Shown in pieces: positions 4,171 through 47,310 of a stretch of DNA of 60,079 bases. The notes beneath the pieces were generated by a model. That model saw nothing but the letters and a program-made list of their open reading frames with translations, was not told the DNA's origin and did no database searches. The number at the start of each line of letters is the position of its first letter. Position 1 is the stretch's first letter. The position numbers and the translations under genes are program-made. Origin of the DNA: Dehalococcoidales bacterium (GTDB taxonomy: Bacteria; Chloroflexota; Dehalococcoidia; Dehalococcoidales; W693); contig DAOUDM010000011.1 in assembly GCA_034431095.1 (NCBI GenBank), positions 1 through 60,079 of the forward strand, given 5' to 3'.

Positions 4171-4184
4171 AAGATAATTATAAT

Positions 4185-4413
4185 TAGCCAAATGGCAAAA
4201 GTCAATAGGGTATGGACGGAATATTTTTATTGCCTGAAGTCTTATTTTATATCAGGTGTTCTGAAATATAACACTCTATTTGTTATTGTATTATCTAGTA
4301 GGGGATAGCGAAAACTGGGGAGAGTCTCTATATTTGCCAGTTGGCATATATAGAGACAATAGAAGAGATTATTTATATAAAGACTTGACAAATGACAAAA
4401 TATAGGCTATATT
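4185..4413. promoter_or_regulatory. Divergent promoter region with three TTGCCA-N2-TGGCAA-like palindromes and a sigma70 promoter for the + strand XRE gene
   Basis: TAGCCAAATGGCAA at 4185-4198; TTGCCAGTTGGCAT at 4334-4347, inside a 34-bp imperfect palindrome (4324-4357); TTGACAAATGACAA at 4385-4398, overlapping -35 TTGACA (4385), with a 17-bp spacer and -10 TATATT (4408). Confidence 0.6.
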
Positions 4414-4439
4414 AAAGCCGATTGTCATAACGAGGGGGT

Positions 4440-4733
4440 ATGATTATGGCAGAGAATCTAATGGTAAGGACGAAGGTTTTTGACCTCAGTTATCGGGGTT
4501 ACAGGAACCTGTCCGAGCTGGCTAAAGCGATGGGCATATCGGTAAGCCAGATTTACCGGGTAAAAGAGGGCAAGCGACATATCAATCAGAAGTTTATTAT
4601 CGGTGCGGTGAGGGCTTTTCCGGGCTATAGACTGGATGACCTCTTCTATCTTACCCCTGACGAACCGGGTGGCGGCGTTTCCGGCAAGAAGCAGCCGTTA
4701 CCTGGCAATGTAACCTGTTCGGTTTATAAATAA
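4440..4733 (+). CDS. Small XRE-family HTH regulator (Cro-like)
   Basis: LSELAKAMGISVSQIYRVKEGKRHINQKFI HTH motif; divergent from the other XRE gene. Confidence 0.85.
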   Translation: MIMAENLMVRTKVFDLSYRGYRNLSELAKAMGISVSQIYRVKEGKRHINQKFIIGAVRAFPGYRLDDLFYLTPDEPGGGVSGKKQPLPGNVTCSVYK

Positions 4734-7860: not shown

Positions 7861-7990
7861 CAGGGGGAGTTTAAGAGGAGCGAAACCTTTATAAATACAG
7901 GCGGGAGGTTTGGAGGGACGCAGTCCCTCCATTATAATCTTCCCCCTCTCCTTGTAAGGAGAGGGGGATTCAGGGGGTGAGGTTGTTCTG
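7861..7990. repeat. REP-like palindromic intergenic element, copy 1 (second copy at ~47221-47310, inverted)
   Basis: CCCCCTCTCCTTGTAAGGAGAGGGGG (7942-7967) is identical to 47246-47271. The flank GGGGG(T/A)GAGGTTGTTCTG and a GTTTAAGAGG-hairpin motif are also shared in inverted orientation. Confidence 0.75.
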
Positions 7991-21715: not shown

Positions 21716-21972
21716 TGTTCTTTATTATCCTCACCTTGCTGGTTGGGTATGTATTTCTTGCCCCAGAAGAGGTGGCCGGCGATGTAGCCGAGGGCAAAAA
21801 CCAGCAGCAGCCAGAAGATCAGTGGCCACAGCCAGTAGCCCAGTATGGCGCCGGCGGCAACAAGGGTAATAATGCACAAGCCCTCGTATTTATGCCATAT
21901 ATCGCGCAGGATATAGGTCCAGGGTCGGCTGCCGATTGCCTGCCACAATGCACGGTAGATGTTTGCTAGCAT
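21712..21972 (-). CDS. Small two-TM membrane protein, holin-like
   Basis: Two hydrophobic segments and a charged C-terminus (GKKYIPNQQGEDNKEQ); located in the virion operon. Confidence 0.45.
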   Translation of the reverse strand: MLANIYRALWQAIGSRPWTYILRDIWHKYEGLCIITLVAAGAILGYWLWPLIFWLLLVFALGYIAGHLFWGKKYIPNQQGEDNKEQ

Positions 21973-21992
21973 CAGTTCTCCGAATATCTTGC

Positions 21993-22625
21993 TTATGGTC
22001 CGTAGTCGGTTGTTTTTGATACAACCGGATAGGCTGGCTTGTAGAGCTGATTTATTCTGGCCCGGTTTCTCCGCCCCAGCCGTTTGAGCTCCTGCCGGAA
22101 GTAGTCTAGGTTCTCCCTGCCCCAGCCGAGGAGCTCCCCGGGTGTTGCCGTGCCGCCGACATTAACCCGGTTGATGGCAAAGGCGGCCCATTCCACGGAG
22201 GCGTAGCCACAGGCGCCGGTAGCGATTAAGTCCTCGTAGATGGCGGGGATGGTCGAGCTTCCGGTATCAAGGGTATGGAGCTTGCCGTAGTAGATATAGG
22301 CGTTTGAGCCGTCGGGCACTTCTTCCCCCAGCAGGGTTACGGTATCCCCCCACAGGCTAAAGCGCTGATATATTTTGGGGAACCTGTCCACCGGGTATTC
22401 TACGGCTTGAACCATAATACGGTTGGTGATGGTAGATATATCAAGCTCTCTGGAGTCGGCGGTAGTAGCCTTGGTCGTTTTTTGCTCCAGTGGTATAGCC
22501 TCGGAGAGTTCCCTAGCGGCATGGGCGATGTGCCTGTCCAGCTCATCGTTGCTCCAGCGGTAGTTCTCCGAGTCCTCGTCGTGCAGGTCGCGCCTGACTA
22601 TGGCTCTCATCTCGGTCAGGTTCAT
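21993..22625 (-). CDS. Phage head-tail adaptor/connector protein
   Basis: MNLTEMRAIVRRDLHDED...WSNDELDRHI is typical of gp15/gp6-like adaptors; located downstream of the capsid gene. Confidence 0.7.
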   Translation of the reverse strand: MNLTEMRAIVRRDLHDEDSENYRWSNDELDRHIAHAARELSEAIPLEQKTTKATTADSRELDISTITNRIMVQAVEYPVDRFPKIYQRFSLWGDTVTLLGEEVPDGSNAYIYYGKLHTLDTGSSTIPAIYEDLIATGACGYASVEWAAFAINRVNVGGTATPGELLGWGRENLDYFRQELKRLGRRNRARINQLYKPAYPVVSKTTDYGP

Positions 22626-22628
22626 AGT

Positions 22629-22838
22629 TTATCTCCTAAGCCTGGCTAGTGCTTTTACCAGCTGTTTGAGTTTGGTAGTGGTTAGTTCGGCATCCGTTAA
22701 GCTGGAGAGTTGGGCGATGGTATTTTCCGCCTCCTCCCTCTCCAGCTCTTCATCGGAGACCTTATAGGGTATCTTTTCGGTTGCTATTAACTTGCTGTCT
22801 CTATAAGTCTCTATTGTTTGGTATCTTGTTTCCGGCAT
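22629..22838 (-). CDS. Hypothetical phage protein
   Basis: AGGAG RBS, in operon, tight spacing. Confidence 0.6.
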   Translation of the reverse strand: MPETRYQTIETYRDSKLIATEKIPYKVSDEELEREEAENTIAQLSSLTDAELTTTKLKQLVKALARLRR

Positions 22839-22848
22839 AATTGTCTCC

Positions 22849-23454
22849 TTAATCCAGCGATGAAACCCTTACCGCGCCATATCCGGCAGACCACTCACCA
22901 TCAGGGGTCGGGAACGGGTCGGCCAGGGCGGCGGGATTTTCCCCGCCTTTGTAGAGGCTGGCAGCAGTACCAGCTAGGTTAGTATTATTTGCCCCGATGG
23001 GGCTCCAGGCGGCAGAGTAATACCTTATAGCAGGTGTTCCATCGCTGATGACTGCTATAAAGTAGATGCCCTTGGTTAATGCCTGCCCGCCGCTGATTTG
23101 CAGAGTCTTTAAGCCGGTGCTGTCAACGGCAACGGTTCCGGCGTCAAGCAACAGGGTGCCGGGGTACAGGTTGGTCCCCACATTATAGATACCGAGACGG
23201 GCAATCTTGCCCGCGGCGGCGGCAGATGTAACCTCGATTACCAGATGGCTCAGGGTCATAGCCCTGGGGACCAGCATAAAGGTGCCGACCAGTCTGTTAG
23301 CCACTACGGTTACGGTTCCAAAGGCATAGATAGGGAGCAGTATCTGGTTTTTCCCTGTCCTCAGCCTATCCATCAGCTGGTAGCTATGGGCATCAAGGCT
23401 GGCTTCATGGTCAGCCAGTTGCCCCTCAATACATTCTCCGGCAAGTTTGAGCAT
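22849..23454 (-). CDS. Phage structural protein (head fibre/decoration-like beta-sandwich)
   Basis: IEVTSAAAAGKIARLGIY...YPGTLLLDAGTV...TGLKTLQI...KGIYFIAV is a pattern common in virion appendage proteins. Confidence 0.5.
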   Translation of the reverse strand: MLKLAGECIEGQLADHEASLDAHSYQLMDRLRTGKNQILLPIYAFGTVTVVANRLVGTFMLVPRAMTLSHLVIEVTSAAAAGKIARLGIYNVGTNLYPGTLLLDAGTVAVDSTGLKTLQISGGQALTKGIYFIAVISDGTPAIRYYSAAWSPIGANNTNLAGTAASLYKGGENPAALADPFPTPDGEWSAGYGAVRVSSLD

Positions 23455-23465
23455 AGTTTCACCTC

Positions 23466-23807
23466 CTAGCTAAGGCTATAGTCCGCCTCGAGGGAGAATG
23501 ATGTCCCCGAGAAAGCGGTCACCTTAAGAAATATGATAGCTCCTCTGGAGTCGACTATCAGGGCATGCTGTCCGGTGGCAGTGAATGTTCTCTTGCTACC
23601 TCCGAACCACTTCTCCTGCCTCGGGTTCCAGAAGATGACCTGGGTTTCGAGGCTAGTGAGGCCGGTGCCGGTGATGGTGATATCGAGGCGGCATTCTTTA
23701 TACCCTTCGCTGTCGATGGCTCCCGAGGTGTCCGCCGGGTCGGATGTGTCAACAGTGGTGATACCGCTCCGGTGGAGCTTGGGTTGTGTGACGTAAACTT
23801 CAGCCAT
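23466..23807 (-). CDS. Hypothetical phage protein (possible capsid decoration protein)
   Basis: Beta-rich 113-aa protein immediately after the capsid gene; AAGGAG RBS. Confidence 0.5.
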   Translation of the reverse strand: MAEVYVTQPKLHRSGITTVDTSDPADTSGAIDSEGYKECRLDITITGTGLTSLETQVIFWNPRQEKWFGGSKRTFTATGQHALIVDSRGAIIFLKVTAFSGTSFSLEADYSLS

Positions 23808-23859
23808 AACTTGTCTCCTTTGGGTGGGGAGGGGTTTATCCCCTCCCCACGGATTTAGT

Positions 23860-24780
23860 TTAGTCCTGGGCGCCTATCAGCGCCGCCGCTTTTACAGAGG
23901 AAAACAGTGCCAGTGAGCAGTACCACTTGACCCGGGTACGCGAGGCATCCTTGTTCTCCAGCGGGCCAATCGGCTCTACCTGGAGGAAGCCGGGGCTGGT
24001 CAAGCCGCAAAGGGCGCCTTCGCCGAGCTGGATGACGTAGATGGTGGAGCAGTCGCCGCCGGTGGTGGCTGATTCCAGGCTGTCGGTGACGATGTGGGTG
24101 TCGAGTATCCAGTCGTTGACGCCGATGGGGATGCCGTCCCATAGCTGGATGAAGTTGCCCCAGCTATCGCGGTCGGCGTCCATCATGCCGCCGGCGGCTC
24201 TGACCAGGGTGTTGATCTTACGCCGCGAGCGGCGGCTCATCAGTAGCATATCGGGCTTGCCGCCTTTTACAGCGTCGATGAGCTCATCCAGCTTATCCAG
24301 CGTCAGGGTGGCGCCGGTGGCGCCCATAGCGATAACCTGGTCGCTGGCGCTGGTGGTGTCGATGAGCAGCCTCAACCCGTCGAACTGCTTTGAGTTGGTT
24401 GCCGAGTCGCCGTAGATGAAGATTTCGTCGAACTTTTGCTTGAGCGCCTTGGCTTTGAGCTCTATGATTGCCGACTCGAGGTCCTGGACGTTGCTTCGGG
24501 TTGCCTTAAGGAAGTTGTCGACATCGGCATCGCCGCCCATTATTTTCAGGTTGGCTGTCTTTTGTTCGAAGGTCGGGGTGGACTCATCCCAGGTATCACC
24601 GACATCGTAGAAGTCGATGCTGGGCAGGGCATTCTCCTGATTGTAGGTCAGGCCGTTGCCCACGATTTCGATAAATGGTAGTTGCTGCAGGATAGGGGAG
24701 TCCTTAACGATGGTCTCCACTACCCCCTGGAGCAGTATATCGTTGGATAATTTTGATGCTTCGGCTAGGGTTAAAGCCAT
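23860..24780 (-). CDS. Major capsid protein (HK97-fold type)
   Basis: 306 aa; LPFIEIVGNGLTYNQENALP, GGDADVDNFL, FIYGDS...FDGL, TLDKLDELID, WDGIPI, RVKWYCSLAL; follows scaffold and portal. Confidence 0.88.
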   Translation of the reverse strand: MALTLAEASKLSNDILLQGVVETIVKDSPILQQLPFIEIVGNGLTYNQENALPSIDFYDVGDTWDESTPTFEQKTANLKIMGGDADVDNFLKATRSNVQDLESAIIELKAKALKQKFDEIFIYGDSATNSKQFDGLRLLIDTTSASDQVIAMGATGATLTLDKLDELIDAVKGGKPDMLLMSRRSRRKINTLVRAAGGMMDADRDSWGNFIQLWDGIPIGVNDWILDTHIVTDSLESATTGGDCSTIYVIQLGEGALCGLTSPGFLQVEPIGPLENKDASRTRVKWYCSLALFSSVKAAALIGAQD

Positions 24781-25286
24781 TATTTGTTACCTCCTATGGC
24801 GTATTGAATTTTTTCCCTGGCAGATAGAGCTGAGAAGTCGGGTGGGGTTCTCACCGGGGCGCCGGCCGGGATTCTGGTTTTGATAGCCTCAGCCTCCAGT
24901 CCCTGCCTCACCTGGCTGACCAGGTTCTTGGCTCTGGCCAGCGAGTCGTCGATTGACTCGATGGTGTCGCCGGTGATAAGTTCGGGGGGTACTTCCGGAT
25001 TGGTCTCAATCACTATGCTCTTGTAGCTCGATACCGCCTTGCTTAGCTGTTCGCCGAGCTGGTCGAGGTCTTCGCTGGACTGGGTGACGGACTGCTCCAG
25101 GGAAGCGATTTCGCTGTCTTTGTCGGCTACAGCCTGCTCCAGCTTCAAGATTTGCTGGTTCCTTGCCTCCAGCTCCCGGTCTTTCTCGGTGACCAGTTGG
25201 GTAAGCTCGGTAACTCTGGCTTCAAGCTGCCTCAGCTTCTCCTCCAAGGGATTTTGCTCTTCCTGTTTTAGCTCTTCATCAGTCAA
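24780..25286 (-). CDS. Capsid scaffolding protein
   Basis: Acidic coiled coil with C-terminal PPDFSALSAREKIQYA tail; stop overlaps the capsid start codon (TAATG). Confidence 0.75.
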   Translation of the reverse strand: MTDEELKQEEQNPLEEKLRQLEARVTELTQLVTEKDRELEARNQQILKLEQAVADKDSEIASLEQSVTQSSEDLDQLGEQLSKAVSSYKSIVIETNPEVPPELITGDTIESIDDSLARAKNLVSQVRQGLEAEAIKTRIPAGAPVRTPPDFSALSAREKIQYAIGGNK

Positions 25287-25309
25287 ATTAAATAACCCCC
25301 TTGTGATTG

Positions 25310-26695
25310 TTACAAAGCGCCTTCCACCTTGGGCTTCAAAGCTCTCTCTCGCCCGCCGCCGGCGGTAGACTTGGCACTAAGCTCTTTATTCATCTTGAGG
25401 ATGGCCTGCCTCTCCTCAAGCCACTGCTTGAACTCCATCTCCGGGTCGTTGACCCCGACCTCGTACATAGCCCGGCGCCGGGAGTGGATGCCGTTCTGAA
25501 CCAGGGTCTGCTCATTGGTGACCAGACGGCTCAGGTCTCTGGGCAACACCGGGCTCCAGACCACATCCAAACGGTGGTTGCCGAAGTCCTGGTTCTGGTA
25601 TTTCTCGATAAGCCGGAGGATGAGCTGGCCTCTCTTTTTATAGGCGGTGGTCCTGATGAGTCTCTTGCGCCACACCTTCTGCAATAGCGGTTGTAGCTCA
25701 ATCTCAAGGGCTACCCCGGAAAGGTCCCTGGAGGTGCCGCCGAAGGCAGCTCGGGGCGCCTCGGCGACATCATGCAGGGTTCGGTAAAGGAGGTCGATGT
25801 AGCTGATGTGGAGGCCGACGCCACCGCCCTGGAGCAGGTCAAGCAGGTAGGCTTTAGCATCGTCGGGTATGTTCCACACTGCCCCCGGCTTGACGGCGAT
25901 ATCCTCGGATTCCTCCACGTTCTCCAGTACGGCGATGGGGTTGCCCGATAGCTCCAGGATTCTTGATAGCTGGCTCATCGCCCGGTTCAGCTCCCGCTGT
26001 GGCTCGACGAGCTGTGCCAGATCGGATATGCCCCAGAACTTCTTCGGCTCTCTCAGGTTGGGGTAGATAACGAACGGGATAAAGCCGTAGGGGTTGGCTT
26101 TCTTCTCTACCTGGTTATCGTCCAGCCAGAGCTCGAAGTGCCCGTCTGTCCATATCTCGACGATGCTGGCTGTCTTGCCCCTGGCTTTTACCCCGTACTG
26201 GATTTCAGCCTCCTCGGCGGTCAGGTTGTACTTTGAGGCTACCCGCCATATTCGGGAGGTGTCGTCTCCCAGCCACCAGGCATAGATACCCTGGATATCG
26301 GGGGCGGTAACCCGGACGGCCTTCCTTTCCGTGTCCCAGGTAACCTTGAAGCAGGCGTCGCCGAGGATGGCGCAGTCAATCTCGGTCTCGAAGGTTAGCT
26401 GTTCCAGGTTGTTGTCCTGCTCCACCTGCCGCAGGGCGGCCTCGGCTCTCTTGGCTCTGGCTCTGGCTTCGTCCGAATCCTCCACCGCCTCGACGGTCGA
26501 GTGAACGCCGGATGACAGATAGGAAGTGACCTTGTCGATAACCACCTTGGCGTAGTTGAAGGTCAGGTGTTTCTCGCCTCGGGTGGCGCGACCTGGCCAC
26601 TGCTGGCCGCGGTAGAAATCGAGCAGCTCCCGGTACCGTTTGAGCCTGTCAAAGTCCTGCTGGTTCAACTGCATTGGGGTGAAATCATTGTTCAT
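25310..26695 (-). CDS. Phage portal protein (SPP1 gp6-like)
   Basis: 461 aa; LDFYRGQQW, TFNYAKVVIDK, AILGDACFKV, NPYGFIPFVIYPN...WGISDL, SGVALEIELQPL. Confidence 0.9.
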   Translation of the reverse strand: MNNDFTPMQLNQQDFDRLKRYRELLDFYRGQQWPGRATRGEKHLTFNYAKVVIDKVTSYLSSGVHSTVEAVEDSDEARARAKRAEAALRQVEQDNNLEQLTFETEIDCAILGDACFKVTWDTERKAVRVTAPDIQGIYAWWLGDDTSRIWRVASKYNLTAEEAEIQYGVKARGKTASIVEIWTDGHFELWLDDNQVEKKANPYGFIPFVIYPNLREPKKFWGISDLAQLVEPQRELNRAMSQLSRILELSGNPIAVLENVEESEDIAVKPGAVWNIPDDAKAYLLDLLQGGGVGLHISYIDLLYRTLHDVAEAPRAAFGGTSRDLSGVALEIELQPLLQKVWRKRLIRTTAYKKRGQLILRLIEKYQNQDFGNHRLDVVWSPVLPRDLSRLVTNEQTLVQNGIHSRRRAMYEVGVNDPEMEFKQWLEERQAILKMNKELSAKSTAGGGRERALKPKVEGAL

Positions 26696-26709
26696 CTTTT
26701 ATCCTTTGT

Positions 26710-27015
26710 TTAAAAATCTTGGTCTTCCTGATGAGTGTTCCGGTAGTTCTTCAGCACCCTCTGGACGGTGCGCTGGCTGATGCTGAATGCTATCGCCAGC
26801 TCTTTTACTCCTCTGCCCTCTTTCTGGAACTGGTGCAGTATCTGCCGGTCACGGCGGCTCTTGAGCAGGTGCTGCTTGCCTCTGGGCACGTCGTAGATGC
26901 ATCCGGGGAAGGGACAATTGAGACAGGATTCAGCCAGTTCACAGCCTTCATCTTTGTAATGACAATACTCCGGTGGTAAATCTATCTCAGTGTAAAACGT
27001 CGGCTCCAGTTCCAT
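26710..27015 (-). CDS. Cys-cluster + HTH DNA-binding protein (candidate late-gene regulator); track start 27024
   Basis: C-x6-C-x5-C-x2-C-x4-C followed by GVKELAIAFSISQRTVQRVL HTH; first gene of the virion operon. Confidence 0.7.
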   Translation of the reverse strand: MELEPTFYTEIDLPPEYCHYKDEGCELAESCLNCPFPGCIYDVPRGKQHLLKSRRDRQILHQFQKEGRGVKELAIAFSISQRTVQRVLKNYRNTHQEDQDF

Positions 27016-27049
27016 AACACTCAATCCAAAAAGCTCACTGAGTGGTAAA

Positions 27050-27078
27050 ATAATAGCACATATGTTCTATTCGGTCAA
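27050..27078 (-). promoter_or_regulatory. Promoter of the virion operon with a LexA-like (GAAC-N4-GTTC) box between -35 and -10
   Basis: Minus strand TTGACC-17 bp-TATTAT with extended TGn; AGAACATATGTGCT (27068-27055) lies inside it. Confidence 0.7.
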
Positions 27079-27148
27079 CACTTTTTTGTCGTCTGGGAGG
27101 CTAACCATTCTGTCTTATTTGCGTTATAGTTAGTAGGCTCGTTGATGC

Positions 27149-27177
27149 TTGACAAAGGAGGATATTGGTGCTATTAT
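27149..27177 (+). promoter_or_regulatory. sigma70 promoter for the HTH + surface protein operon
   Basis: TTGACA (27149)-17 bp-TATTAT (27172), extended -10 TGc. Confidence 0.7.
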
Positions 27178-27212
27178 TGTTTTGACAAAGTAATATTTAC
27201 TTTTCTAGTATT

Positions 27213-27416
27213 ATGGTACCTTTAGATAACTACTATAATGTGATGGAAGCCGGTCATCGTCTCAAGATTCATCCGGAAACGGTGAAACGCCTGTGCCGGC
27301 AGAAAGACCTGCCGGCGATAAAGTTGCATAATACCTGGTTGATTGACAAGGATGACCTTGACAACTTCGCCGGGACCTACGTCCCGAGGCGCGGTGCTAA
27401 AAGGAAACTGATATAG
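27213..27416 (+). CDS. Excisionase/MerR-like winged HTH (HTH_17) protein
   Basis: YYNVMEAGHRLKIHPETVKRLCRQKDLPAIKLHNTWLIDKDDL. Confidence 0.85.
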   Translation: MVPLDNYYNVMEAGHRLKIHPETVKRLCRQKDLPAIKLHNTWLIDKDDLDNFAGTYVPRRGAKRKLI

Positions 27417-27437
27417 AAAACTTATAAGGGAGGAAAC

Positions 27438-29852
27438 ATGGTGAAAGATAAAAAGGTTTTTCGAATACTGGCAGTGACTTTGACTTTGGCGTTACTGCTG
27501 ATGGCGATACCGGCGTCGCTGGTCCTGGCGGCGGCAAGTCTTAATCTTACCCCGGACGAAGGCGAGGTTGGTGATGACGTTCAAGTTAATGGCACGGGTT
27601 TTAATACAGGCCTGAGCCTCATTCTTTATTTCTCCAGCCAGCCGGCTGAGGTGGGCGATGATATCAATACCGATGTTACCATCTATAAGCAGGTAAATAC
27701 AGCTGGTACGCCTGTGAGTCCCAATTTTGTTAAAAACTTTCTGGTGCCGGAAGTTCTTAGCCAGGGCCCTGGTACCGATGAAGATGTTCACGACGGCAGG
27801 TATTATGTATATGTTACCAATGATATTTCAGAGTATATACTGGCCAAGGCTTACTTTACCGTCGTTGGCTTTGGTACTATTGAGTTAAGCGATGATGAAG
27901 GCACGGTTGGTACCGAGATTGACATCACCGGTGGTGGCTTTGCTGCAGATGAAGATCTTTCCGTGGAGTTTGGCGGCGATGAAGTGGATATTGAATCTGG
28001 TGATGAGGTAACCGATGAAGACGGTGAATTTATCCTATCCATTATTATCCCGGATGCCATTTTTGGTGACCATACTATAGCTGTTATCGGTGGAGAGTCT
28101 CTGGCAGAGGTTAGCGATACATTTACTGTGATGTCAGATATAACAGTTAATCCTGTGCAAGGGCTGCCGGGCGATGAGCTGACATTATATGGCACCGGTT
28201 TTGATAAAAGGAATGGTGTGGATTTCTATTTTGGTGGTACCCCGATTACTGTTGAATGGATTGTTGATGCTGCCCGCAGTAAGACCAACAACGACGGTTA
28301 TTTTGCCGTAAAGATTACCGTACCCGATGTTGATGTCGGTGCCTATACCATTCTGGCCGAGGATGAGGATGACGATGATATCTCAGCACAGGTAACCTTC
28401 ACCGTGACAGAGCCATCGTTAAACCCGGTTATCGTCGTTGACCCCACCAGTGCCAATGTCGACGACGAGGTTGAGGTTAGCGGGACGGAGTTCGCTCCCG
28501 GCGATACCGTGACCATCTACTTTGACGATGAAGTTGTCGACACGACTACCACCTTGACTGACGGCAGCTTCACCGGTTCCTTTGATATTCCCGAGAGTGT
28601 CAATGGCAGTCATACCATAAAGGCTGAGGATACTGATGGTGGGGTGGCGACAGCAACGATAACCGTAGAGCCGAAGATAGCCTTTGACATTGAAGAAGGC
28701 CCGGGCGGTACCGAGGTAACGGTAACCGGCACCGGCTTCGGCTACCGGAGCGATATTGAGACCATTGAATTTGATAGTACCGATGTTGATATAGAGAGCG
28801 GTGATGATAGGTCTGGTACGGATGGCAGTTTTGAGTTCAGCTTCATAGTGCCGGCGGTTGGAGCCGGCAGTTATGATGTAACGGTCGAGGATGAAGACGG
28901 CAACTCCGCCGAGGCCGAGTTCACCGTGGTGGCCGCCGCGGCCAGCATTACTCCAACCAGCGGAGTGGGCGGCACTGAAATTACAGTTACCGGTGTTAAC
29001 TTTATCGCCGGTGCTGAAGTTACCATTTCTTATGATGGTGTTGACATTACTACTGCTACTGCCGGTAGTGATGGAACAGTATCAGCTACATTCGATGCTC
29101 CTGCCGGCGCCGGTGGGGTACACAATGTAACCATAAGTGATGGAATAAACGATCCCGATGCTGAATTTACAGTTACTGCTGAAGCTTCTATCAATCCAGT
29201 TAGCGGTAATGTAGGCAGTGCGATTACGGTGAGTGGTAATGGCTTTGGCGCCAGCAAGCCGATAACCATCACCTATGATGGCAGTGTCGTTACCCCGATG
29301 GCGACAATCGTAACTCTGGTTGACGGCAGCTTCAGCGGCAGTTTTATCGCTCCTGTCAGCACTGGCGGTAGCCACGTTATAACCGTCAGCGATGGCGTCA
29401 ACCCTCCTAAGCAGTTTACCTTTACCATGGAGACAACCAAACCGCCGACGCCCCAGCAACTTCCGCTTGGGACGGATAAGCCCAAGCAGCCGATTACCTT
29501 TGATTGGAGCGATGTCACCGATGCCAGTATGCCGGTAACATATAGTCTCCAGGTTGCTACCGATGCCAGCTACGGCAATATAGTGATTGATAAGATGGGG
29601 CTTGCCGGGTCTGAATACACCCTTCTCGAAGAGGAGGAGCTTGAGCCTGTTGGTAAGGATAGCCCTTACTACTGGAGAATAAGCTCAACAGATGCTGCCA
29701 GCAATAGCAGTGACTGGGGTCCCAGCGCCACCTTCTATATTGGTGGCGGTTGGCCCGGCTGGCTGATGTGGCTCTGGATTGGGCTGGGGGCACTGACGCT
29801 CGGTATATTCTTCTTCTGGCTGGGTAGGAGAATAGCCTTTAGCTCCTACTAA
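27438..29852 (+). CDS. Large acidic cell-surface protein: signal peptide, ~7 IPT/TIG Ig-like repeats, FN3-like module, C-terminal membrane anchor
   Basis: Seven P-x2-G-x2-G-x-(E/D)-V-x-V-x-G-x-GF repeats, FDWSDV...YYWRI module, and a Trp-rich TM segment ending GRRIAFSSY. Confidence 0.85.
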   Translation: MVKDKKVFRILAVTLTLALLLMAIPASLVLAAASLNLTPDEGEVGDDVQVNGTGFNTGLSLILYFSSQPAEVGDDINTDVTIYKQVNTAGTPVSPNFVKNFLVPEVLSQGPGTDEDVHDGRYYVYVTNDISEYILAKAYFTVVGFGTIELSDDEGTVGTEIDITGGGFAADEDLSVEFGGDEVDIESGDEVTDEDGEFILSIIIPDAIFGDHTIAVIGGESLAEVSDTFTVMSDITVNPVQGLPGDELTLYGTGFDKRNGVDFYFGGTPITVEWIVDAARSKTNNDGYFAVKITVPDVDVGAYTILAEDEDDDDISAQVTFTVTEPSLNPVIVVDPTSANVDDEVEVSGTEFAPGDTVTIYFDDEVVDTTTTLTDGSFTGSFDIPESVNGSHTIKAEDTDGGVATATITVEPKIAFDIEEGPGGTEVTVTGTGFGYRSDIETIEFDSTDVDIESGDDRSGTDGSFEFSFIVPAVGAGSYDVTVEDEDGNSAEAEFTVVAAAASITPTSGVGGTEITVTGVNFIAGAEVTISYDGVDITTATAGSDGTVSATFDAPAGAGGVHNVTISDGINDPDAEFTVTAEASINPVSGNVGSAITVSGNGFGASKPITITYDGSVVTPMATIVTLVDGSFSGSFIAPVSTGGSHVITVSDGVNPPKQFTFTMETTKPPTPQQLPLGTDKPKQPITFDWSDVTDASMPVTYSLQVATDASYGNIVIDKMGLAGSEYTLLEEEELEPVGKDSPYYWRISSTDAASNSSDWGPSATFYIGGGWPGWLMWLWIGLGALTLGIFFFWLGRRIAFSSY

Positions 29853-29878
29853 TATATCTTGATAATACAGGAAATAGC

Positions 29879-29915
29879 ATCCCCCCTCCCTGATTTACGG
29901 GAGGGGGATTTTTTT
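29879..29915 (+). terminator. Rho-independent terminator after the surface protein gene
   Basis: ATCCCCCCTCCC...GGGAGGGGGAT followed by a T run. Confidence 0.75.
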
Positions 29916-30031
29916 AATGAAAGAGGGAGCTGAAAGCCCCCTCTTAGACTTTTCCCCCTGCCTTGCTATGCAGAATACTATTGGACAAATGTGGTATAAT
30001 TAACATAACGAAATATTAGCTTGAAGATGCT

Positions 30032-31138
30032 GTGAAAGAAGATGAGAATATATTCCCATCATTACTAGAAAAGGTACTTGTAGACATTTGGGGAGGTGGT
30101 GGAGACCGTCTTAGCACACTTCATCTTAAAAAAACACGCACAGCGACTTCTCATATTCGAAGTATCTATAGGCATAAGGGTGAGCACGGTACTATCCAAC
30201 CTTCCAGAATAAATTACCAATTTAAGCAAAATAGGGCTGGATATTTAGCTGCCTTTGGGGAAAGGCATGCTTATCTATCCTACTTACATTTAAATAAAGT
30301 ACAAAGCAAAAATCCTGAAGCAATACCAAAGCCTCGTGGCAAGAGAAACGAATTGGTAGTTACTTCTTTGGGAGCTGGAGCTTGTGTTGAGTTATTTGGC
30401 ATATGTCTTTTCTATTTATCAGGTGCAGGTCGTCAATCGCTTCTTTTAAAATTAAACTCTGTAGAAAAAGAGCGTGAATGGAATTCAAGCCAACATATTG
30501 TATTTACTAGAGTCCTAAAAGATATTTTTCCGAAAGTAGATGTTGATAAAATTGATGTTGCAGTAGATTTGAAAGAGGATGCAATACCTGCATTCTCTAA
30601 TCAATATGATAGGCTCACCAACACCGATATATTGCTTATTTACAACGTTTTAAATGAAATCCCATCAACTTATGCGAATAAAGTATGGAGAAATATTAAA
30701 TTTTTAATAGACATATTCCAGAGGCCAGTTCTTATTCTTCTTATGGAACCTTCTGCTTCGCGAGCGGAACCTCGTATATATCGAATAAAGGAACAACTCA
30801 TTCAACAAACTGATTTGATTGAAGAAAACAAGGAAGAAATATTTTATTTTAATGAAGCACCTGTTTGCATCAAGAAGAGCAATTCTGAAGATGATTTAAA
30901 CTATCGGTTATTTGGACCTAGCACTGATAGCTCGCAGCCTGATTTCGAGACGTCAATTTCGAGAGCACACATGTCTTCTGTGAAGAAACCAGATTCACCA
31001 ATAACCATGGAACAAGTGGCTTTGCAGCTTTCGAAGTTGGGTATTAAGAGAGGGAGAAAAGGAGCAAGTGCGTTTCGGCGCCCTAGAGTAGGGCCACAAT
31101 ATACGTTTGTCTCTGTTAGTGATGATTGGAAATTGTAA
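30032..31138 (+). CDS. Putative class I SAM-dependent methyltransferase, Rsm22-like; AT-rich insert (GTG start)
   Basis: VTSLGAGACVE (motif I-like), DILLIYNVLNEI and LILLMEPS resemble the Rsm22 DLVIASxVLNEL / LVxIEPG motifs; visibly AT-richer than the flanks. Confidence 0.55.
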   Translation: MKEDENIFPSLLEKVLVDIWGGGGDRLSTLHLKKTRTATSHIRSIYRHKGEHGTIQPSRINYQFKQNRAGYLAAFGERHAYLSYLHLNKVQSKNPEAIPKPRGKRNELVVTSLGAGACVELFGICLFYLSGAGRQSLLLKLNSVEKEREWNSSQHIVFTRVLKDIFPKVDVDKIDVAVDLKEDAIPAFSNQYDRLTNTDILLIYNVLNEIPSTYANKVWRNIKFLIDIFQRPVLILLMEPSASRAEPRIYRIKEQLIQQTDLIEENKEEIFYFNEAPVCIKKSNSEDDLNYRLFGPSTDSSQPDFETSISRAHMSSVKKPDSPITMEQVALQLSKLGIKRGRKGASAFRRPRVGPQYTFVSVSDDWKL

Positions 31139-31237
31139 TGAAAAGGTGGTAGTATAACATTTAACTACACCTTGTAATATATACAATTGCTGCTTGACTT
31201 GGTTTAGCGCTATTGCTTTTTGCACAATCTTACCCCC

Positions 31238-32671
31238 TCACTCCCTAACACTCCCCACCGCTGTTTTCCTCTCGTATTGGTTAGCTGCTTCAACCAGCAG
31301 TGCCAGGCTCATCAGGAAGTCGTCGTGCCCCTGTGACGGGTCGACATAAAAATTCATTGTCTGGTTGGGGCGGTACTGGTTTCTGGCTTTTTCCATCTGT
31401 AACCAGAACTCTCGGTATTCCGCTGAGCCGTCGCCGGCATACACCTTCAGCCGGCCCGAGTTAATAGCCGCCAGCAGGTTGAAGCCCAGCTTTGACTTGG
31501 AACCGGTGGTGAAGGTGAACGGGGAGACTTTTGAACCCAGTGACTTCCTAAGGAAGGAGCTTACCGGCTGGCCGACGCCGGTGGCATCGACCACTACCCG
31601 TCGGCAGTGCCATACATTACCCAGGATGTCGATAAGCTGATGGTAGAGCTCGGAGTGCTTTTTACCGGTCCACCAGTAGTGCTCGACGATATTTACCCTG
31701 GGCTGTTTCTGAACTTCGTCGCTGACCGAGAAGTCCAGTTCGCCGATGGTAACCACGGTCGAGTCCTTGAGCGGCTTTAGAGCTCTCAGGGTAGCTCCCT
31801 CCGCCTCCTCTGCCTCACCGGCAAGGTCGATGCCGGCGATATAGGTTTTGCCCGGCTCGGGCTGGTGTTTTCTCGGGTGCTTCCCCTGTAGCTGTGCCCT
31901 CTGTTGATGGCTTAAGAAGCCACCGCCGCCATGTATGGGTAACAGGCAGTACTGGGTCAGGAAAAGTGGGTGGTTCTCCCCCAAACGCTCACGCTCCGCC
32001 TGGACATAGGCTAGATAATCGGGGTTGTATTTGGCTACTTCCTGCCAGTCGAATCGGAAGTGGCGTTTGGTGCCGTCTTTCCTCTCCAGTTCCAGGTTGG
32101 TCTGCTTTATCTCCTCGAGCAGGGTCAGGTCGTCCCAGGTGGTGCCGTAGTGAATGGTGGTGACATTGGTTGTCGCCCCCATAGGTTTGAACTCCTTGGT
32201 GTATTTCGCCTTGCTTACATCTTGGGACTCGTCTATCTCCAGGAGTATGTGAGCCGTGTTACCAACGACGTTAGCCGATTCGTCGGCGGAAAGGAATATA
32301 GCCCTGGCATTATATAGCCTGATGATATAGCCCATCTCGGATGTCCAGACGCCAGCAAAACCGGCATCGTTCAGCCTGTCCTTGAGCCGCGTCATAGAGA
32401 TGACCGTCTGCGGTTTGAAGGTGGGGGCACACTTAATCAGGTTCTGCGGTGTCGCCGTCATGAAGAGGGTCACAAGCAACAGCTCAAGCTGGGCGGATAG
32501 CTCGTTCTTGCCTCCCTGGCGGGCGATCTCGACGGAGAAGGTAATGCCCTTCCTGCCGAAAACGCTGTCCAGTATAGCCAGTGCCACCTCTCTCTGGTAG
32601 GGGCGGAGTCTATTTATCAATGAAGCTTCCGATGCCGATGCCCAGCGGTAGGGCAACATCCCGGAGGACAT
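31238..32671 (-). CDS. Terminase large subunit
   Basis: LRPYQ, Walker A ARQGGKNE, Walker B LEIDESQ, GTT coupling motif, nuclease acidic residues GIDLAG, VDATGVG and HDDFLMS all present. Exact start uncertain. Confidence 0.92.
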   Translation of the reverse strand: MSSGMLPYRWASASEASLINRLRPYQREVALAILDSVFGRKGITFSVEIARQGGKNELSAQLELLLVTLFMTATPQNLIKCAPTFKPQTVISMTRLKDRLNDAGFAGVWTSEMGYIIRLYNARAIFLSADESANVVGNTAHILLEIDESQDVSKAKYTKEFKPMGATTNVTTIHYGTTWDDLTLLEEIKQTNLELERKDGTKRHFRFDWQEVAKYNPDYLAYVQAERERLGENHPLFLTQYCLLPIHGGGGFLSHQQRAQLQGKHPRKHQPEPGKTYIAGIDLAGEAEEAEGATLRALKPLKDSTVVTIGELDFSVSDEVQKQPRVNIVEHYWWTGKKHSELYHQLIDILGNVWHCRRVVVDATGVGQPVSSFLRKSLGSKVSPFTFTTGSKSKLGFNLLAAINSGRLKVYAGDGSAEYREFWLQMEKARNQYRPNQTMNFYVDPSQGHDDFLMSLALLVEAANQYERKTAVGSVRE

Positions 32672-32975
32672 TGGTGATCGCCTCCTTCAGGCTCCTCTTG
32701 TCCTCCTTGCTGATGTTGTATCTGGTTCTGACCAGCCGGGCCAGAGTATTGGTTGCCTGTATAATGAGCTTTATATTTTGCGGGTCGTGGGCAACGACGG
32801 ACTTAATCTTGGTTCTAAGCAGGGCGATCTCATCGTCGATACCCTCGACGCGGGTGGCTAGCTCGAAATCGAGCTGTTCCGCCTCATCGAGCACCCTGGA
32901 GTAGAAGCCGTGCTTTCTAGCGTTTTGATTGCCTCTGGGGGCGCCTCTTTTTATTTTCTCTGTATTCTCCGGCAT
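32610..32975 (-). CDS. Terminase small subunit
   Basis: KRGAPRGNQNARKHGFYS N-terminal TerS motif; AAAGGAG RBS before ATG 32975; directly upstream of terL. Confidence 0.8.
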   Translation of the reverse strand: MPENTEKIKRGAPRGNQNARKHGFYSRVLDEAEQLDFELATRVEGIDDEIALLRTKIKSVVAHDPQNIKLIIQATNTLARLVRTRYNISKEDKRSLKEAITNVLRDVALPLGIGIGSFIDK

Positions 32976-33078
32976 ATAGTCTGTCTCCTTTGTCAAGGAG
33001 CTCGGCAGTGGTCAGGACAATAATGTGAGCCGCCAACTCCCATCTCTGGTTTTCTATGGCTAATCTCAGCAGTTTCAT
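32917..33078 (-). CDS. Unannotated 53-aa protein overlapping terS (MKLLRLAIENQRWELAAHIIVLTTAELLDKGDRLYAGEYRENKKRRPQRQSKR)
   Basis: Strong SD AAGGAGGAGG before ATG 33078; first ORF after the LexA-box promoter; below the 60-aa track cut-off. Confidence 0.6.
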   Translation of the reverse strand: MKLLRLAIENQRWELAAHIIVLTTAELLDKGDRLYAGEYRENKKRRPQRQSKR

Positions 33079-33106
33079 CGCCTCCTCCTTGACTAGATGT
33101 AGAGTT

Positions 33107-33135
33107 ATAATAGCACAAATGTTCTACTATTACTA
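33107..33135 (-). promoter_or_regulatory. Promoter of the terminase operon with a LexA-like box
   Basis: AGAACATTTGTGCT (33125-33112) overlaps extended -10 TGcTATTAT; 19 of 20 bp (ATAATAGCACA-x-ATGTTCTA) identical to 27050-27069. Confidence 0.7.
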
Positions 33136-33201
33136 CTATATTTTGTCATATCTGAAGAATTGATATTATGCTCTATCCGCTATAGAATAGTGGGTTAGAA
33201 G

Positions 33202-34375: not shown

Positions 34376-34729
34376 GGCTAAGTAAACCGGGTAACCGCCC
34401 CTTCTTCGAAGGGGAGGAAAGTCCGAGCTCCACCGGGCAGGGTGCTGGGTAACGCCCAGGAGGGGTGACCCTACGGATAGTGCCACAGAAACATACCGTC
34501 CTTCGGCTGAAGGATAAGGGTGAAATGGTGAGGTAAGAGCTCACCAGCGGCCGGGTGACCGGTCGGCTGGGTAAACCCCACCCGGAGCAAGACCGAATAG
34601 AGGGACAAAAGGACGCCCGGCCTGTCCCCGGGTTGGTCGCTTGACCCTGCTGGTAACAGCAGGGCTAGATAGATGGTTACCGCCCTTCCTCGGAAGGGTA
34701 CAGAACTCGGCTTACAGGTTTACTTAGCC
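34376..34729 (+). ncRNA. rnpB: RNase P RNA (bacterial type A)
   Basis: GAGGAAAGTCC, AGTGCCACAGAAA, GGGTGAAA, GGTAAACCCC...GAGCAAG and ACAGAACTCGGCTTA conserved regions; 5' GGCTAAGTAAACC pairs with 3' GGTTTACTTAGCC; promoter TTGACT (34340)-17 bp-TAGAGT. Confidence 0.98.
34704..34729 (+). repeat. attL (3' end of rnpB)
   Basis: AACTCGGCTTACAGGTTTACTTAGCC, identical to 38009-38034. Confidence 0.92.
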
Positions 34730-35175
34730 TAAACACTATTGTCACTTTCTGTCCTCCTTCTATTTGAGCGGCTGGTCCTCTATATTAGCCATTTTTTAAG
34801 CTCTTGATTCCATTATGCCATTCTCTTTTGAATAATATAGCCATGGCACCTGGCTGTCAATATAGTTCTACACTGTGGTTGACTATATGTCAATAGAGGT
34901 TAATAAACACTGGGGTTGACAAAAGGGTTAATAGGGGCTGATAAAAGGGTTGAAAATGAATACGTAAAGGAAAGGTAGTTTTCTACTCGAGAAACTATCT
35001 GACGGTTTGTTAGGTAACATTTCGATGAAATGTTATTTCCATTTTGCCCTTTTTAGGAAAGCAATTTAATTAATAATCCCTGTATTTATTATGATAAGAT
35101 AACTTCAAATCTATTCATCGTATTTTTAATTGTGTCACCGGTGTAAAAAACATACAAAGAAAAGGCAATTAAAAT

Positions 35176-35584
35176 TGACCTGCCCCCATAAGGTGTACCA
35201 CTTGTTAAGTTAGAGTTACCGGTATTATAGCCTCAGGAGCTGGTGGCTGATCTTAGTCTTGATAACTCCATTCTCAAAGAGGCAGCCCAGGGAAACTCCT
35301 AAGCCCGTCCAAAAGGCGAAGGGTGATAATCCGCGTAAGCGAGTCATTTCATATCTCCCAGAGGCGGGCATGCCGGGTGCTGAGGCAGGCCAGGTCTACT
35401 CAGAGGCGTATTCTCCGTACCAGCTGCGAAGAGGACAGACTGGTGACGTGCATTATTAATCTGGCCACTAAGTATGGCAGATACGGATATCGCAGGATAA
35501 CAGCTCTGTTGCGTAATGAAGGCTGGAAGGTAAACCACAAGAGGGTGGAGAGGATATGGAGGAGGGAAGGACCTAAGGTGCCCA
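35176..35584 (+). pseudogene. Rearranged IS3-family remnant (IS end fused to orfA C-terminus and orfB N-terminus)
   Basis: Starts TGACCTGCCCCCATAAGGTGTACCAC, then ELVADLSLDNSILKEAAQGNS*, slippery GGGAAAC (35290-35296) and orfB YGRYGYRRITALLRNEGWKVNHKRVERIWRREG; truncated after KVP. Confidence 0.85.
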
Positions 35585-35788
35585 ATATGTCTTGCTAGCA
35601 CCGCTGGGTAACGATCAGCCAGAAAGCGACTCACTTTGTTGGTAGTCTGAGCAGGAATCTTTACTCATGTGTGTTGCTCCCCAGTAATGCTTTTAGGGAG
35701 TGGAGTGAACAGATACCAATAGCTGAAGTTCTTTACATGGAGATGCGTTAGTCTGTTTTTCGATGCCGGGCAGGTGGGAGCAGGTGTA

Positions 35789-36566: not shown

Positions 36567-37057
36567 TGGCCTGCCCCCATAAGGTGTACCACCTATAGAG
36601 TTAGAGTCTCGACCATTTTAGCTTCAGGAGCTGGTGGCTTATAACCCAGAGAACTATGTGGTCTTACCTGATTGTATTCCATCCTCCACTCCTCAATCAA
36701 TACCCTGGCCTCTATCAACGTTGTAAATATCTCCTTGTTAAGAAGTTCATCCCTTAGCTTACCATTGAATGACTTGATATATCCATTCTCCCATGGACTT
36801 CCCGGCTCTATAAACAGGGTCTTCACTCCCAAACGACTAGGCCAGTTTCTTATCTACCTGGCGGTAAATTCTGTGCCATTATCTGAGCGGATATGCTCCG
36901 GTATTCCCCTGAGTATAAACAGGTTAAACAGCTGGTCGATGACATCCTGGGAGGAAATACGGCGGCTGCTCCGGAGTGTAAGCCTTCTTGGCCATTTATC
37001 CCCCTTTTATCCTCCAGTCTAACATTAAGACCGGACTACTTTTTGGGGGGCAGGTCA
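36567..37057 (-). mobile_element. 491-bp internally deleted IS3-family element with both terminal IRs and a 4-bp target duplication
   Basis: Ends TGACCTGCCCCC / TGGCCTGCCCCC; TCAC duplicated at 36563-36566 and 37058-37061; orfA start MAKKAYTPEQ fused to the integrase core (IRSDNGTEF, PGSPWENGYIKSFNGKLRDE, RPHSSLGY) with an in-frame stop. Confidence 0.88.
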
Positions 37058-37120: not shown

Positions 37121-37912
37121 TCACACTTTCTGACGAAATGTGCAGGTCACAAGATATAGGGCGGTTGTGTCCGGTGATTGATGCCCTAGTAACTTCTGTA
37201 CATCTCTCAAGTTTGCCCCAGATTCTAGCAGCTGGGTCGCAAAATAATGACGCGGACAATGAGGATGAAAACCCTCCAAGCCACAAGCCTTGGCCAAACT
37301 GGTGACTATTCTATAAAAAATGCGGCCATTAAGGCCATCAAAGACTCTTTCCCTCGCTACCTTGCTGGCGCACTGCTCACGTAGCGGAAGGATGGTCCTT
37401 TCGGCCATGGGTATTACCCTATCCCGCTGCCCTTTTCCTTGGCGCACCAAGATGCGGCGATTATTGAAATCAGTATCGCTAACCAGCAGGCTAAGCAATT
37501 CGCTCTTGCGAAGGCCGGTATAGCCTAGTACTAGGATCAGGTTTTTATTTCTCCGTTTCTGCGCTCCAGTTTGATGGCAAAGCCCTGTCTCAGCCTGCTT
37601 AACCAGTGCCTCATAGTCGCCCCTGTCATGGTAGGGTGGCAGCATTACGGGCTTTTGTAGCTTAATTTTAAGGTGCTCACCAATAAACTCGAAGAATGGC
37701 CTCAGGGCGTGGTAGTAGACCAGGAGCGACTTTGGCTGATAGCCCCTGTCTCTGAGGTGGGCTATGAATTCCTTGGCATTGGCAGCACTTGGCTCCTTAC
37801 CGGAGAGCCATTTACTGTAGCCTTCTAATATTTGCCGATACTTCGCCACTGTGCTACGATTAAGGTCGTCCTGCTTTAGCCTTTGGTAGTAATCTTTAAG
37901 GAGTGTTGCCAT
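37121..37912 (-). CDS. Tyrosine recombinase/integrase (XerC/D-like, SAM-like N-domain); track start 37942
   Basis: TGLRKSEL (R), GKG (K), HCPRH (HxxR), LGH and TTALY (Y) all present. HxLRH has L>P and the extreme C-terminus may be replaced by foreign sequence. Confidence 0.9.
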   Translation of the reverse strand: MATLLKDYYQRLKQDDLNRSTVAKYRQILEGYSKWLSGKEPSAANAKEFIAHLRDRGYQPKSLLVYYHALRPFFEFIGEHLKIKLQKPVMLPPYHDRGDYEALVKQAETGLCHQTGAQKRRNKNLILVLGYTGLRKSELLSLLVSDTDFNNRRILVRQGKGQRDRVIPMAERTILPLREQCASKVARERVFDGLNGRIFYRIVTSLAKACGLEGFHPHCPRHYFATQLLESGANLRDVQKLLGHQSPDTTALYLVTCTFRQKV

Positions 37913-38008
37913 ATCTAAAGGATAACACTTGCCAGCTGGCAAACTGTCTACAAGCTGGGAGCAAAGACTTTTGGCAACTGCCCGAATCTGGCTTTCAGAT
38001 AGTCCTGT

Positions 38009-47220: not shown

Positions 47221-47310
47221 ATCAGAACAACCTCTCCCCCTTAATCCCCCTCTCCTTGTAAGGAGAGGGGGAGATATAAAAAGAGGGGCTTTGCCCCTCT
47301 TAAACGCCCC
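47221..47310. repeat. REP-like palindromic intergenic element, copy 2
   Basis: Identical 26-bp palindrome at 47246-47271 plus AAGAGGGGCTTTGCCCCTCTT hairpin; inverted relative to the 7861-7990 copy. Confidence 0.75.

Follow-up and report, generated by a model that had tools for sequence, protein, structure and literature searches.

LexA-type boxes in both promoters of a phage-derived head and packaging module in Dehalococcoidales

A head and packaging module in a core-genome setting

The window analyzed here, that is, the whole stretch of 60,079 nucleotides (nt) from contig DAOUDM010000011.1 of a Dehalococcoidales bacterium (GCA_034431095.1), carries a phage head and packaging module (19715–33078), whose two minus-strand operons are each preceded by a nearly identical site resembling an operator of the SOS repressor LexA. 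The packaging operon (31238–33078), located downstream of promoter P2, comprises a conserved open reading frame (ORF) of 53 amino acids (aa), g53 (32917–33078), the small terminase TerS (32610–32996) and the large terminase TerL (31238–32671), which matches Terminase_6C. The head operon (19715–27015), located downstream of promoter P1, starts with a Mor-like gene (26710–27015), followed by the SPP1-type portal (25310–26695), a coiled-coil scaffold (24780–25286) and a major capsid protein (MCP) of the HK97 fold (23860–24780). The later genes of this operon, on the same strand, are g113, g201 and g69, all three encoding small proteins, a head-tail adaptor (21993–22625), g86 and g666 (19715–21715). 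The Mor-like protein of 101 aa matches Pfam Mor (PF08765; 29.7 bits against a cutoff of 24.9) as well as PHROG families named late transcriptional activator, and its conserved start is the ATG at 27015 rather than the TTG at 27024. Among the later genes, g201 matches a PHROG family annotated as 'tail protein', g86 encodes a small predicted membrane protein, the Pfam match of the head-tail adaptor is below threshold (26.3 bits against a cutoff of 27), and the 666-aa product of g666 has no family matches. Tail tube, tape-measure and endolysin genes were not found in the module. An endolysin would be unexpected, because the hosts, Dehalococcoidia, are wall-less.

The module is flanked by the genes for YqeY and a radical-SAM protein on one side and by those for CT398, RNase H and RNase P RNA on the other, and the same flanks are found in relatives, where the order recurring in metagenome-assembled genomes (MAGs) is RNase H and CT398, then g53–TerS–TerL, in some cases a TIG-repeat gene and an HTH_17 gene, then Mor–portal to g666, and finally YqeY and radical SAM. 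The remainder of the window is core chromosome, with genes for SecD, the CCA-adding enzyme, PriA, L19, TrmD, MraZ/RsmH, FtsA/FtsZ and NrdR/NrdJ, and, in addition to YqeY, the CT398-like protein and RNase H, also PheT, ProS, IspG, Dxr, S2 and PurL. The RNase P RNA gene, of bacterial class A (34379–34730, plus strand; 322 bits), is found a short way past CT398 and RNase H, and its presence confirms that the module resides in the core genome. The window has no tRNA gene, no integrase is located beside the module, and the module itself contains no replication, lysogeny or integration genes. A single genome scan yielded 39 loci (L numbers below denote loci); among the relatives, L014, L031, L037 and L038 are unsplit. 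TerL has more than 3700 homologues, the first 120 listed being 78–91% identical, and all named matches belong to Dehalococcoidales or Chloroflexota MAGs. The synonymous divergence (dS) of module genes is 0.7–1.4, compared to 0.9–1.6 for the flanking host genes, and the ratio of nonsynonymous to synonymous divergence (dN/dS) is 0.03–0.07 for MCP and 0.05–0.09 for TerL, indicating co-divergence under strong purifying selection and not recent transfer. Taken together with the synteny and the absence of replication and integration genes, these values identify the module as a head and packaging cluster of phage origin that has been domesticated and is passed on vertically, of the gene-transfer-agent (GTA)-like kind. 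The domestication proposed in the preliminary description of this DNA is thereby upheld, although on different evidence: the LexA-type box, which had been offered as strong evidence of it, is not such evidence when taken alone, since GIL01, a temperate phage, likewise relies directly on the LexA of its host.

Phage-like relatives come from IMG/VR (L043–L047). Their TerL proteins are 61–65% identical to that of the module, a tyrosine recombinase is encoded in four of the five (L043, L044, L045 and L047), and they combine an integrase with one long co-directional gene array; in L047, many small co-directional genes are present and a 1048-aa ORF follows the head genes. None of L043–L047 has a LexA-type box before g53. 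The chromosomal module likely descends from the phage lineage, free or temperate, that these elements represent. Cultured phages are only distantly related, the nearest reaching identities of at most 31% for TerL and at most 40% for MCP.

Two operator-like sites in register with their promoters

The minus-strand 20-mers TAGAACATATGTGCTATTAT (27069–27050) and TAGAACATTTGTGCTATTAT (33126–33107) are identical at 19 of 20 bases and lie 6057 base pairs (bp) apart. Each is the last intergenic element ahead of a minus-strand operon, the former preceding the Mor-like, portal, scaffold and MCP genes and the latter preceding g53, TerS and TerL, exactly as the preliminary description had placed them. With up to three mismatches allowed, the 20-mer has exactly two matches in the window and none in 100 dinucleotide shuffles. 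Beyond it, a weaker similarity between P1 and P2 (41 nt, 76% identity) ends at an equally spaced GACAAAA (repeat family D13). Both sites have seven of the eight core bases of the dyad GAAC-N4-GTTC, reading GAAC-N4-GTGC. Taken alone, the core GAAC-N4-GTKC occurs no more often in the window than expected (2 instances against 2.5), so that the significance of the sites rests on their extended identity, their placement and their conservation in relatives.

The P1 core promoter (27050–27078, minus strand) consists of TTGACC (27078–27073), a 17-nt spacer and TATTAT (27055–27050), with the TG of an extended -10 at 27058–27057. The consensus promoter scan scored it at 10 of 12 consensus bases with the TG present, confirming the promoter read earlier around the first site. 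The LexA-type (Cheo/SOS) box of P1, TAGAACATATGTGCTA (27054–27069, minus strand), is kept in relatives, and its final TA forms the first two bases of the -10. P2 (33107–33135, minus strand) has the weak -35 TAGTAA (33135–33130), a 17-nt spacer and TGcTATTAT, its -10 being at 33112–33107; it was not listed by the scan, because this -35 has only three of six consensus bases. The corresponding box is TAGAACATTTGTGCTA (33111–33126, minus strand). At both promoters, the box occupies the spacer and has its TA in common with the -10.

The preliminary description had proposed conservation upstream of orthologues as a check, and the dyad is indeed kept there: about 30 related Dehalococcoidia loci have the 16-bp form TAGAAC-N4-GTGCTA, at a total of about 38 promoters and with its register relative to the -10 unchanged. 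Across loci the pattern is TAGAAC-N4-GT[G/A/T]CTA, in the same orientation and in register with a TAnnnT -10. It precedes g53, TerS and TerL in nearly every locus with enough upstream sequence, precedes the Mor-like and portal genes wherever the module is split at that point (L001, L005, L006, L009, L010, L017, L039 and L042), and precedes the scaffold and MCP genes in L013 and L037, which are split after the portal; wherever splits occur, the downstream piece carries its own box-bearing promoter. The left half is GAAC in every instance. At positions left free in the search pattern, the left flank is T in 27 and A in 33 of the 34 instances, and the centre conforms to A-T-W-T (A in 28, T in 25 and the last T in 30 of 34). 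The TA flanks mirror each other, the left one having no sigma-70 role. Furthermore, in a motif-blind alignment of the CT398–g53 intergenic regions of eight genomes, cut by gene coordinates, mean column identity is 30%, and the invariant positions, those of the P2 box among them, are GACAA, the T.G of the weak -35, GAAC, TGTGCTA and the last T of the -10. Perfect GAAC-N4-GTTC dyads are found in the deeper-branching L013, L014, L031 and L037. Another perfect dyad, at position 12911 of L020, falls within a coding ORF that belongs to an inserted gene pair, and was dismissed as a chance occurrence.

In some lineages, the genes downstream of these promoters have been lost or moved. In L017 (9985–10581), the half of the module from Mor to g666 (about 7 kb) is deleted and both promoters are kept, the boxed P1 being directly upstream of YqeY, whereas L002, L003, L004 and L008 have TerS and TerL with a box and no capsid half within 10 kb. 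The module is thus decaying or rearranged in some lineages.

Such conservation could also arise without any operator, if the 20-mer were a core promoter spread by promoter duplication or represented two overlapping promoters, nnGACA-17-TAGAAC and the -35 with TATTAT at 17 nt. GACA does lie 17 nt (18 in one locus) before TAGAAC, the hexamer ending in GACA often has five of the six bases of TTGACA, and GTGCTA holds both the TG and the TA of the extended -10. In addition, a distant clade (L025, L027, L029 and L035; TerL about 60% identical) retains GCGACAG...TTGAAG...GTACTAATAT without the left half. However, the last base of TAGAAC, which should be T in a -10, is invariably C (TAGAAT is found in none of the 34 instances), the TA and GAAC of the left arm mirror the right arm, the dyad is invariant although spacer and untranslated region have diverged to about 30% column identity, and the same palindrome is found in lexA promoters (see below). 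We therefore consider a promoter without an operator highly unlikely.

The second conserved element, GACAAAA, is located at 27084–27090 in P1 and at 33141–33147 in P2 (minus strand in both cases), at about -47 to -41, with its GACA 17 nt upstream of TAGAAC in P1 and the same spacing in P2. More generally, G[A/C]CA, usually as GACAAAA, lies 17 nt (again 18 in one locus) upstream of TAGAAC and is conserved as strongly as the dyad, and an element of this type persists in the clade without the left half-site. Its use as a -35 paired with TAGAAC at 17 nt is disfavored by the invariant C just mentioned. GACAAAA could be the target of the Mor-like activator or an UP-like A-tract; in phage Mu, Mor/C proteins act from the region upstream of or over the -35. 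The Mor-like protein, with its helix-turn-helix (HTH) and N-terminal cysteines, might alternatively bind the dyad itself, being the sole clear DNA-binding protein of the module and the product of the first P1 gene. Yet the dyad overlaps the -10, which is the position of a repressor and not the one from which Mor/C activators work, and boxes persist both in loci without a Mor gene within 10 kb (L002–L004 and L008) and in L017. With GACAAAA at about -45 being the more plausible Mor target, binding of the dyad by the Mor-like protein appears extremely improbable.

The phylum's lexA promoters and the case for LexA

LexA is present in MAGs of the class Dehalococcoidia and of other Chloroflexota, as judged from protein homology. 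A metagenome scan for the perfected palindrome TAGAACATWWGTTCTA (pattern TAGAACATWW GTTCTA), from which 120 contigs were sampled, placed it directly upstream of lexA in two of the 120 (L052 and L062); it also lies 240 bp upstream of a LexA-like ORF in L058 and adjoins recA in L048 and L084. Further lexA promoters were retrieved by protein homology from the L052 LexA and thus were not chosen by motif. Their boxes are TCGAACAGGCGTTCCA in L168 and L181, TAGAACAAAAGTTCGT in L183 and TAGAACACAAGTTCTG in L185, whereas the L172 promoter has three, TCGAACGGATGGTCTC, CTAGACTAGTGTTCTG and ACGAACAAAGGTTCGC, with the corresponding three in L175. The lexA promoter of L178 and L180 has CAGAACATATGTGCCG, a GTGC variant as in the window, and that of L187 has CAGAACATTAGTTCTA and TAGAACATTTGTTCTA, the latter being one base off the P2 box. 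The variant halves GGTC and AGAC are common to lexA promoters and the module operators of L023 and L026. The architecture is shared as well: the boxes of L183 and L185 take up the spacer of TTGACA...TATAAT, and that of L062 ends in the TA with which the -10 starts, as in P1 and P2.

A symmetrized position weight matrix (PWM) was built from 12 homology-derived boxes of seven Chloroflexota lexA promoters. Over the approximately 60,000 positions of the window, it ranks the site at 27054 first (18.5 bits) and that at 33111 second (18.3 bits), with the next position at 9.5 bits, so the PWM scoring suggested in the preliminary description came out in favor of both sites, with a matrix from other Chloroflexota. 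Without the GTGC box, the sites score 15.9 and 16.1 bits against 10.2 for the next, and they remain first and second with a PWM made from only three perfect boxes; leaving out the motif-ascertained locus does not change the ranking either. With an earlier 8-box PWM, module promoters were top-scoring in most related loci. The ranking largely restates that the sites are the window's best GAAC-N4-GTNC dyads, and the boxes come from other orders of the phylum; the agreement with lexA promoters in flanks, centre, variants and architecture is additional to it.

Dehalococcoides ethenogenes LexA reportedly recognizes a Gram-positive-type box, CGAAC-N4-GTTCG. Compared to the Gram-positive (Cheo/SOS) box, the window sites have the same dyad, a 4-bp AT-rich centre, one perfect GAAC half and promoter overlap, but differ in their flanks, which are TA instead of C/G (TA being also found in the Chloroflexota lexA promoters), and in the third base of the right half, where T is replaced by G. 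At this position, the 34 instances have G in 26, A in five and T in three cases. Perfect GTTC is seen only with -35 hexamers having five or six of six consensus bases, and promoters whose -35 has three or fewer have G (12) or A (4, no TG); many strong -35 promoters also have G. The preliminary description regarded the G as imposed by the TG of the extended -10. The restriction of GTTC to strong -35 promoters and the prevalence of G at weak ones speak for this, whereas the four weak -35 promoters with A and the many strong ones with G speak against it. Plausibly, the extended -10 favors G where the -35 is weak without strictly imposing it, phylogenetic non-independence among the promoters being high. 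In clostridial LexA operators, one half is typically perfect and the other imperfect (GAAC-N4-GTTT in Clostridium difficile), and cyanobacterial LexA boxes, RGTACNNNDGTWCB, vary at the same position as the G of the window (PMC3091678).

The G, fixed in most of the clade (26 of 34), might instead indicate a dedicated repressor other than LexA, encoded by the host or the module and, for example, of XRE type, which recognizes a Cheo-like palindrome. A possible source in the window is a divergent pair of small HTH genes (3778–4733), HTH_3 (137 aa) and Cro/CI-like (97 aa), situated in an AT-rich 1.2-kb gap between the genes for the CCA-adding enzyme and PriA that also has a 16-nt palindrome (4324–4357). 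The P2 14-mer ATGACAAAATATAG (33136–33149) has one further exact copy, at 4392–4405, in the promoter spacer of the 97-aa Cro/CI-like gene; that promoter has the 14-mer but not the dyad. On the other hand, no repressor-like module protein is conserved in all box-bearing loci, HTH_17 is absent from the unsplit L014 and L031 where the box is nonetheless present, and the variant spectrum, TA flanks, AT-rich centre and promoter architecture all fit the phylum's lexA promoters. A non-LexA repressor is thus an unlikely occupant of the dyad. As a side observation, in a Chloroflexi MAG (L185), lexA adjoins the CCA-enzyme gene. Other regulatory motifs were also compared with the sites: a CIRCE/HrcA site fits only six bases of one arm, and NrdR, sigma-54 and ECF -35 readings fail on spacing or bases.

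Several observations weigh against LexA. The G occupies a core position where 21 of 24 symmetrized lexA-box positions have T, and affinity at G-bearing sites may be low. The invariance of GACAAAA implies the participation of at least one further factor or promoter feature. In the distant clade L025, L027, L029 and L035, the promoter survives without its left half-site, which means that these loci can dispense with repression. No lexA of the organism itself turned up in the window or across about 600 kb of contigs bearing the module: tblastn searches with LexA of Bacillus subtilis, Escherichia coli and Chloroflexota found none in the window or the 47 module loci, and the window contains no SOS genes. 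The lexA promoters used as a source come from other Chloroflexota lineages, with GC contents of 0.53–0.70. Finally, recA in L031 has no box, but this carries no weight, given that the recA gene of D. ethenogenes reportedly lies outside LexA control.

On balance, control of P1 and P2 by LexA is the best-supported reading and, judging from the sequence comparisons, a likely one. On this reading, P1 and P2 are sigma-70-type promoters, each with a single Chloroflexota-type LexA box in the spacer, the right arm of which covers the TGc of the extended -10 and reaches two bases into the -10 hexamer. A host LexA dimer on the box would block RNA polymerase at both promoters, keeping the packaging operon (g53–TerS–TerL) and the head operon (Mor-like to g666) silent together, and RecA-stimulated self-cleavage of LexA upon DNA damage would release both. 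The single G would weaken the right half-site, and it also supplies the TG of the extended -10, which would compensate for the poor -35 of P2-type promoters. The Mor-like activator, as the first product of P1, would possibly boost the weak -35 promoter P2. DNA damage thus probably switches on the GTA-like module.

Comparison with known systems and associated genes

In its logic, the proposed regulation is closest to that of GIL01, and it is also close to that of GTAs. GIL01 is a temperate tectivirus of Bacillus thuringiensis in which host LexA represses the phage's own promoter P1, gp7 is a co-repressor and gp6 is a LexA-like late activator (PMC4551915, PMC6182141). The common features would be direct repression of phage promoters by the LexA of the host in place of a phage CI, the non-canonical boxes and a phage-encoded late activator downstream. 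However, GIL01 is a replicating temperate phage with LexA on an early promoter, whereas here the boxes are on the structural and packaging operons of a chromosomal head module. The module is not GIL01-like in identity: it is devoid of replication genes, and g53 and the Mor-like protein, considered as a gp7-like LexA co-repressor and a gp6-like LexA homologue, respectively, have no sequence similarity to gp7 and gp6. Among GTAs, LexA is required for the production of RcGTA, and a LexA site was predicted in the GTA cluster of D. shibae; in R. capsulatus, LexA acts indirectly through cckA, and GafA is the direct activator (PMC6363796, PMC6473078). Alphaproteobacterial GTAs resemble the module in being vertically inherited, phage-derived structural clusters under purifying selection, and they are controlled by host regulators. 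They differ from it in the indirect action of LexA in R. capsulatus, as opposed to a box on each operon here; the module, moreover, has no tail tube or tape-measure genes. SOS-induced defective prophages and tailocins, such as PBSX and the R/F-pyocins, are also domesticated structural modules expressed after DNA damage, but their RecA-sensitive switch is a repressor of their own (Xre in PBSX, PrtR in pyocins), in contrast to the host-type LexA box found here on each structural operon.

The first gene of P1 resembles phage Mu Mor/C through its Pfam and PHROG matches but differs in having four cysteines, C-X5-C-X2-C-X4-C, N-terminal to the HTH; we know of no such feature in Mu Mor/C. The cysteines are invariant in 11 of 11 aligned homologues, which suggests a metal or Fe-S cluster. 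Activation by a protein with such a putative cluster could be redox- or oxygen-sensitive.

Direct LexA control of a few temperate phages and an indirect LexA influence on alphaproteobacterial GTAs are already known, the latter being the only kind reported for these GTAs. Here, an SOS box is apparently built into each structural or packaging operon promoter of a vertically inherited capsid module, and throughout the class it has persisted or arisen anew following each split. We found no description of such a module in Dehalococcoidia in the searchable literature. If the reading is right, the module would be a clear example of a domesticated virus brought under a global regulator of its host and would point to a DNA-damage-inducible, DNA-packaging particle in Dehalococcoidia. 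The class is relevant to organohalide bioremediation and subsurface carbon cycling; little is understood of how it transfers genes horizontally, reductive dehalogenase islands being one example, and to our knowledge it has no genetic tools. A more far-reaching proposal, which we put forward only tentatively, is that Dehalococcoidia possess an undescribed class-wide GTA-like family, in which every operon is directly SOS-wired via a LexA box, with a four-cysteine Mor-type activator and an embedded, conserved TIG surface gene, and by means of which these wall-less anaerobes would release DNA-filled capsids upon damage. LexA-type boxes on head genes may also occur outside Dehalococcoidia: on a metagenomic contig of 68% GC (L054), a perfect TAGAACATATGTTCTA (1009–1024) is located 35 bp upstream of a portal homologue (41% identical).

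The two operons of the module are separated by opposite-strand cargo (27213–31138, plus strand), which consists of an HTH_17 gene (27213–27416), a gene for a TIG-repeat protein (27438–29852) and an ORF of 36% GC, g368 (30032–31138). The TIG-repeat protein (804 aa) has a signal peptide and a C-terminal membrane anchor and is a predicted surface protein. The HTH_17 and TIG pair occupies the same slot, from TerL to the Mor/portal promoter, in L001–L003, L005, L006, L008–L010 and L017, and may be part of the system (as a receptor or in exclusion) rather than random cargo. The product of g368 (368 aa, in a genome of 55% GC) has no match in Pfam, PHROGs, NCBIfam or PADLOC, and PADLOC and NCBIfam likewise returned nothing for g666, g201 and g113. 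L004 has a 74% identical copy of g368 in the same slot, and the slot of L020, downstream of TerL, is instead occupied by three ORFs, one Cys-rich and of 200 aa, one of 171 aa and one of 530 aa (ATPase-like as judged from sequence). The slot looks like a cargo hotspot.

Elsewhere in the window, a 76-nt direct repeat (35176–35251 and 36567–36642; 82% identical) lies in a region, including also 35323–35598 and 37121–37942, with a lower GC content of 0.44–0.48. Between the repeats are an HD-GYP-like gene and a short ORF resembling an N-terminal transposase fragment, and after them comes a 273-aa ORF resembling a XerC/D-type recombinase; by these resemblances, the region is best regarded as the scar of a separate small mobile element. 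A GC-rich hairpin, CCCCCTCTCC-TTGTAA-GGAGAGGGGG, occurs at 7942–7970, 29882–29910 and 47246–47274, as two 93% identical copies and a variant after the TIG gene, and looks like a shared bidirectional terminator or a REP-like element.

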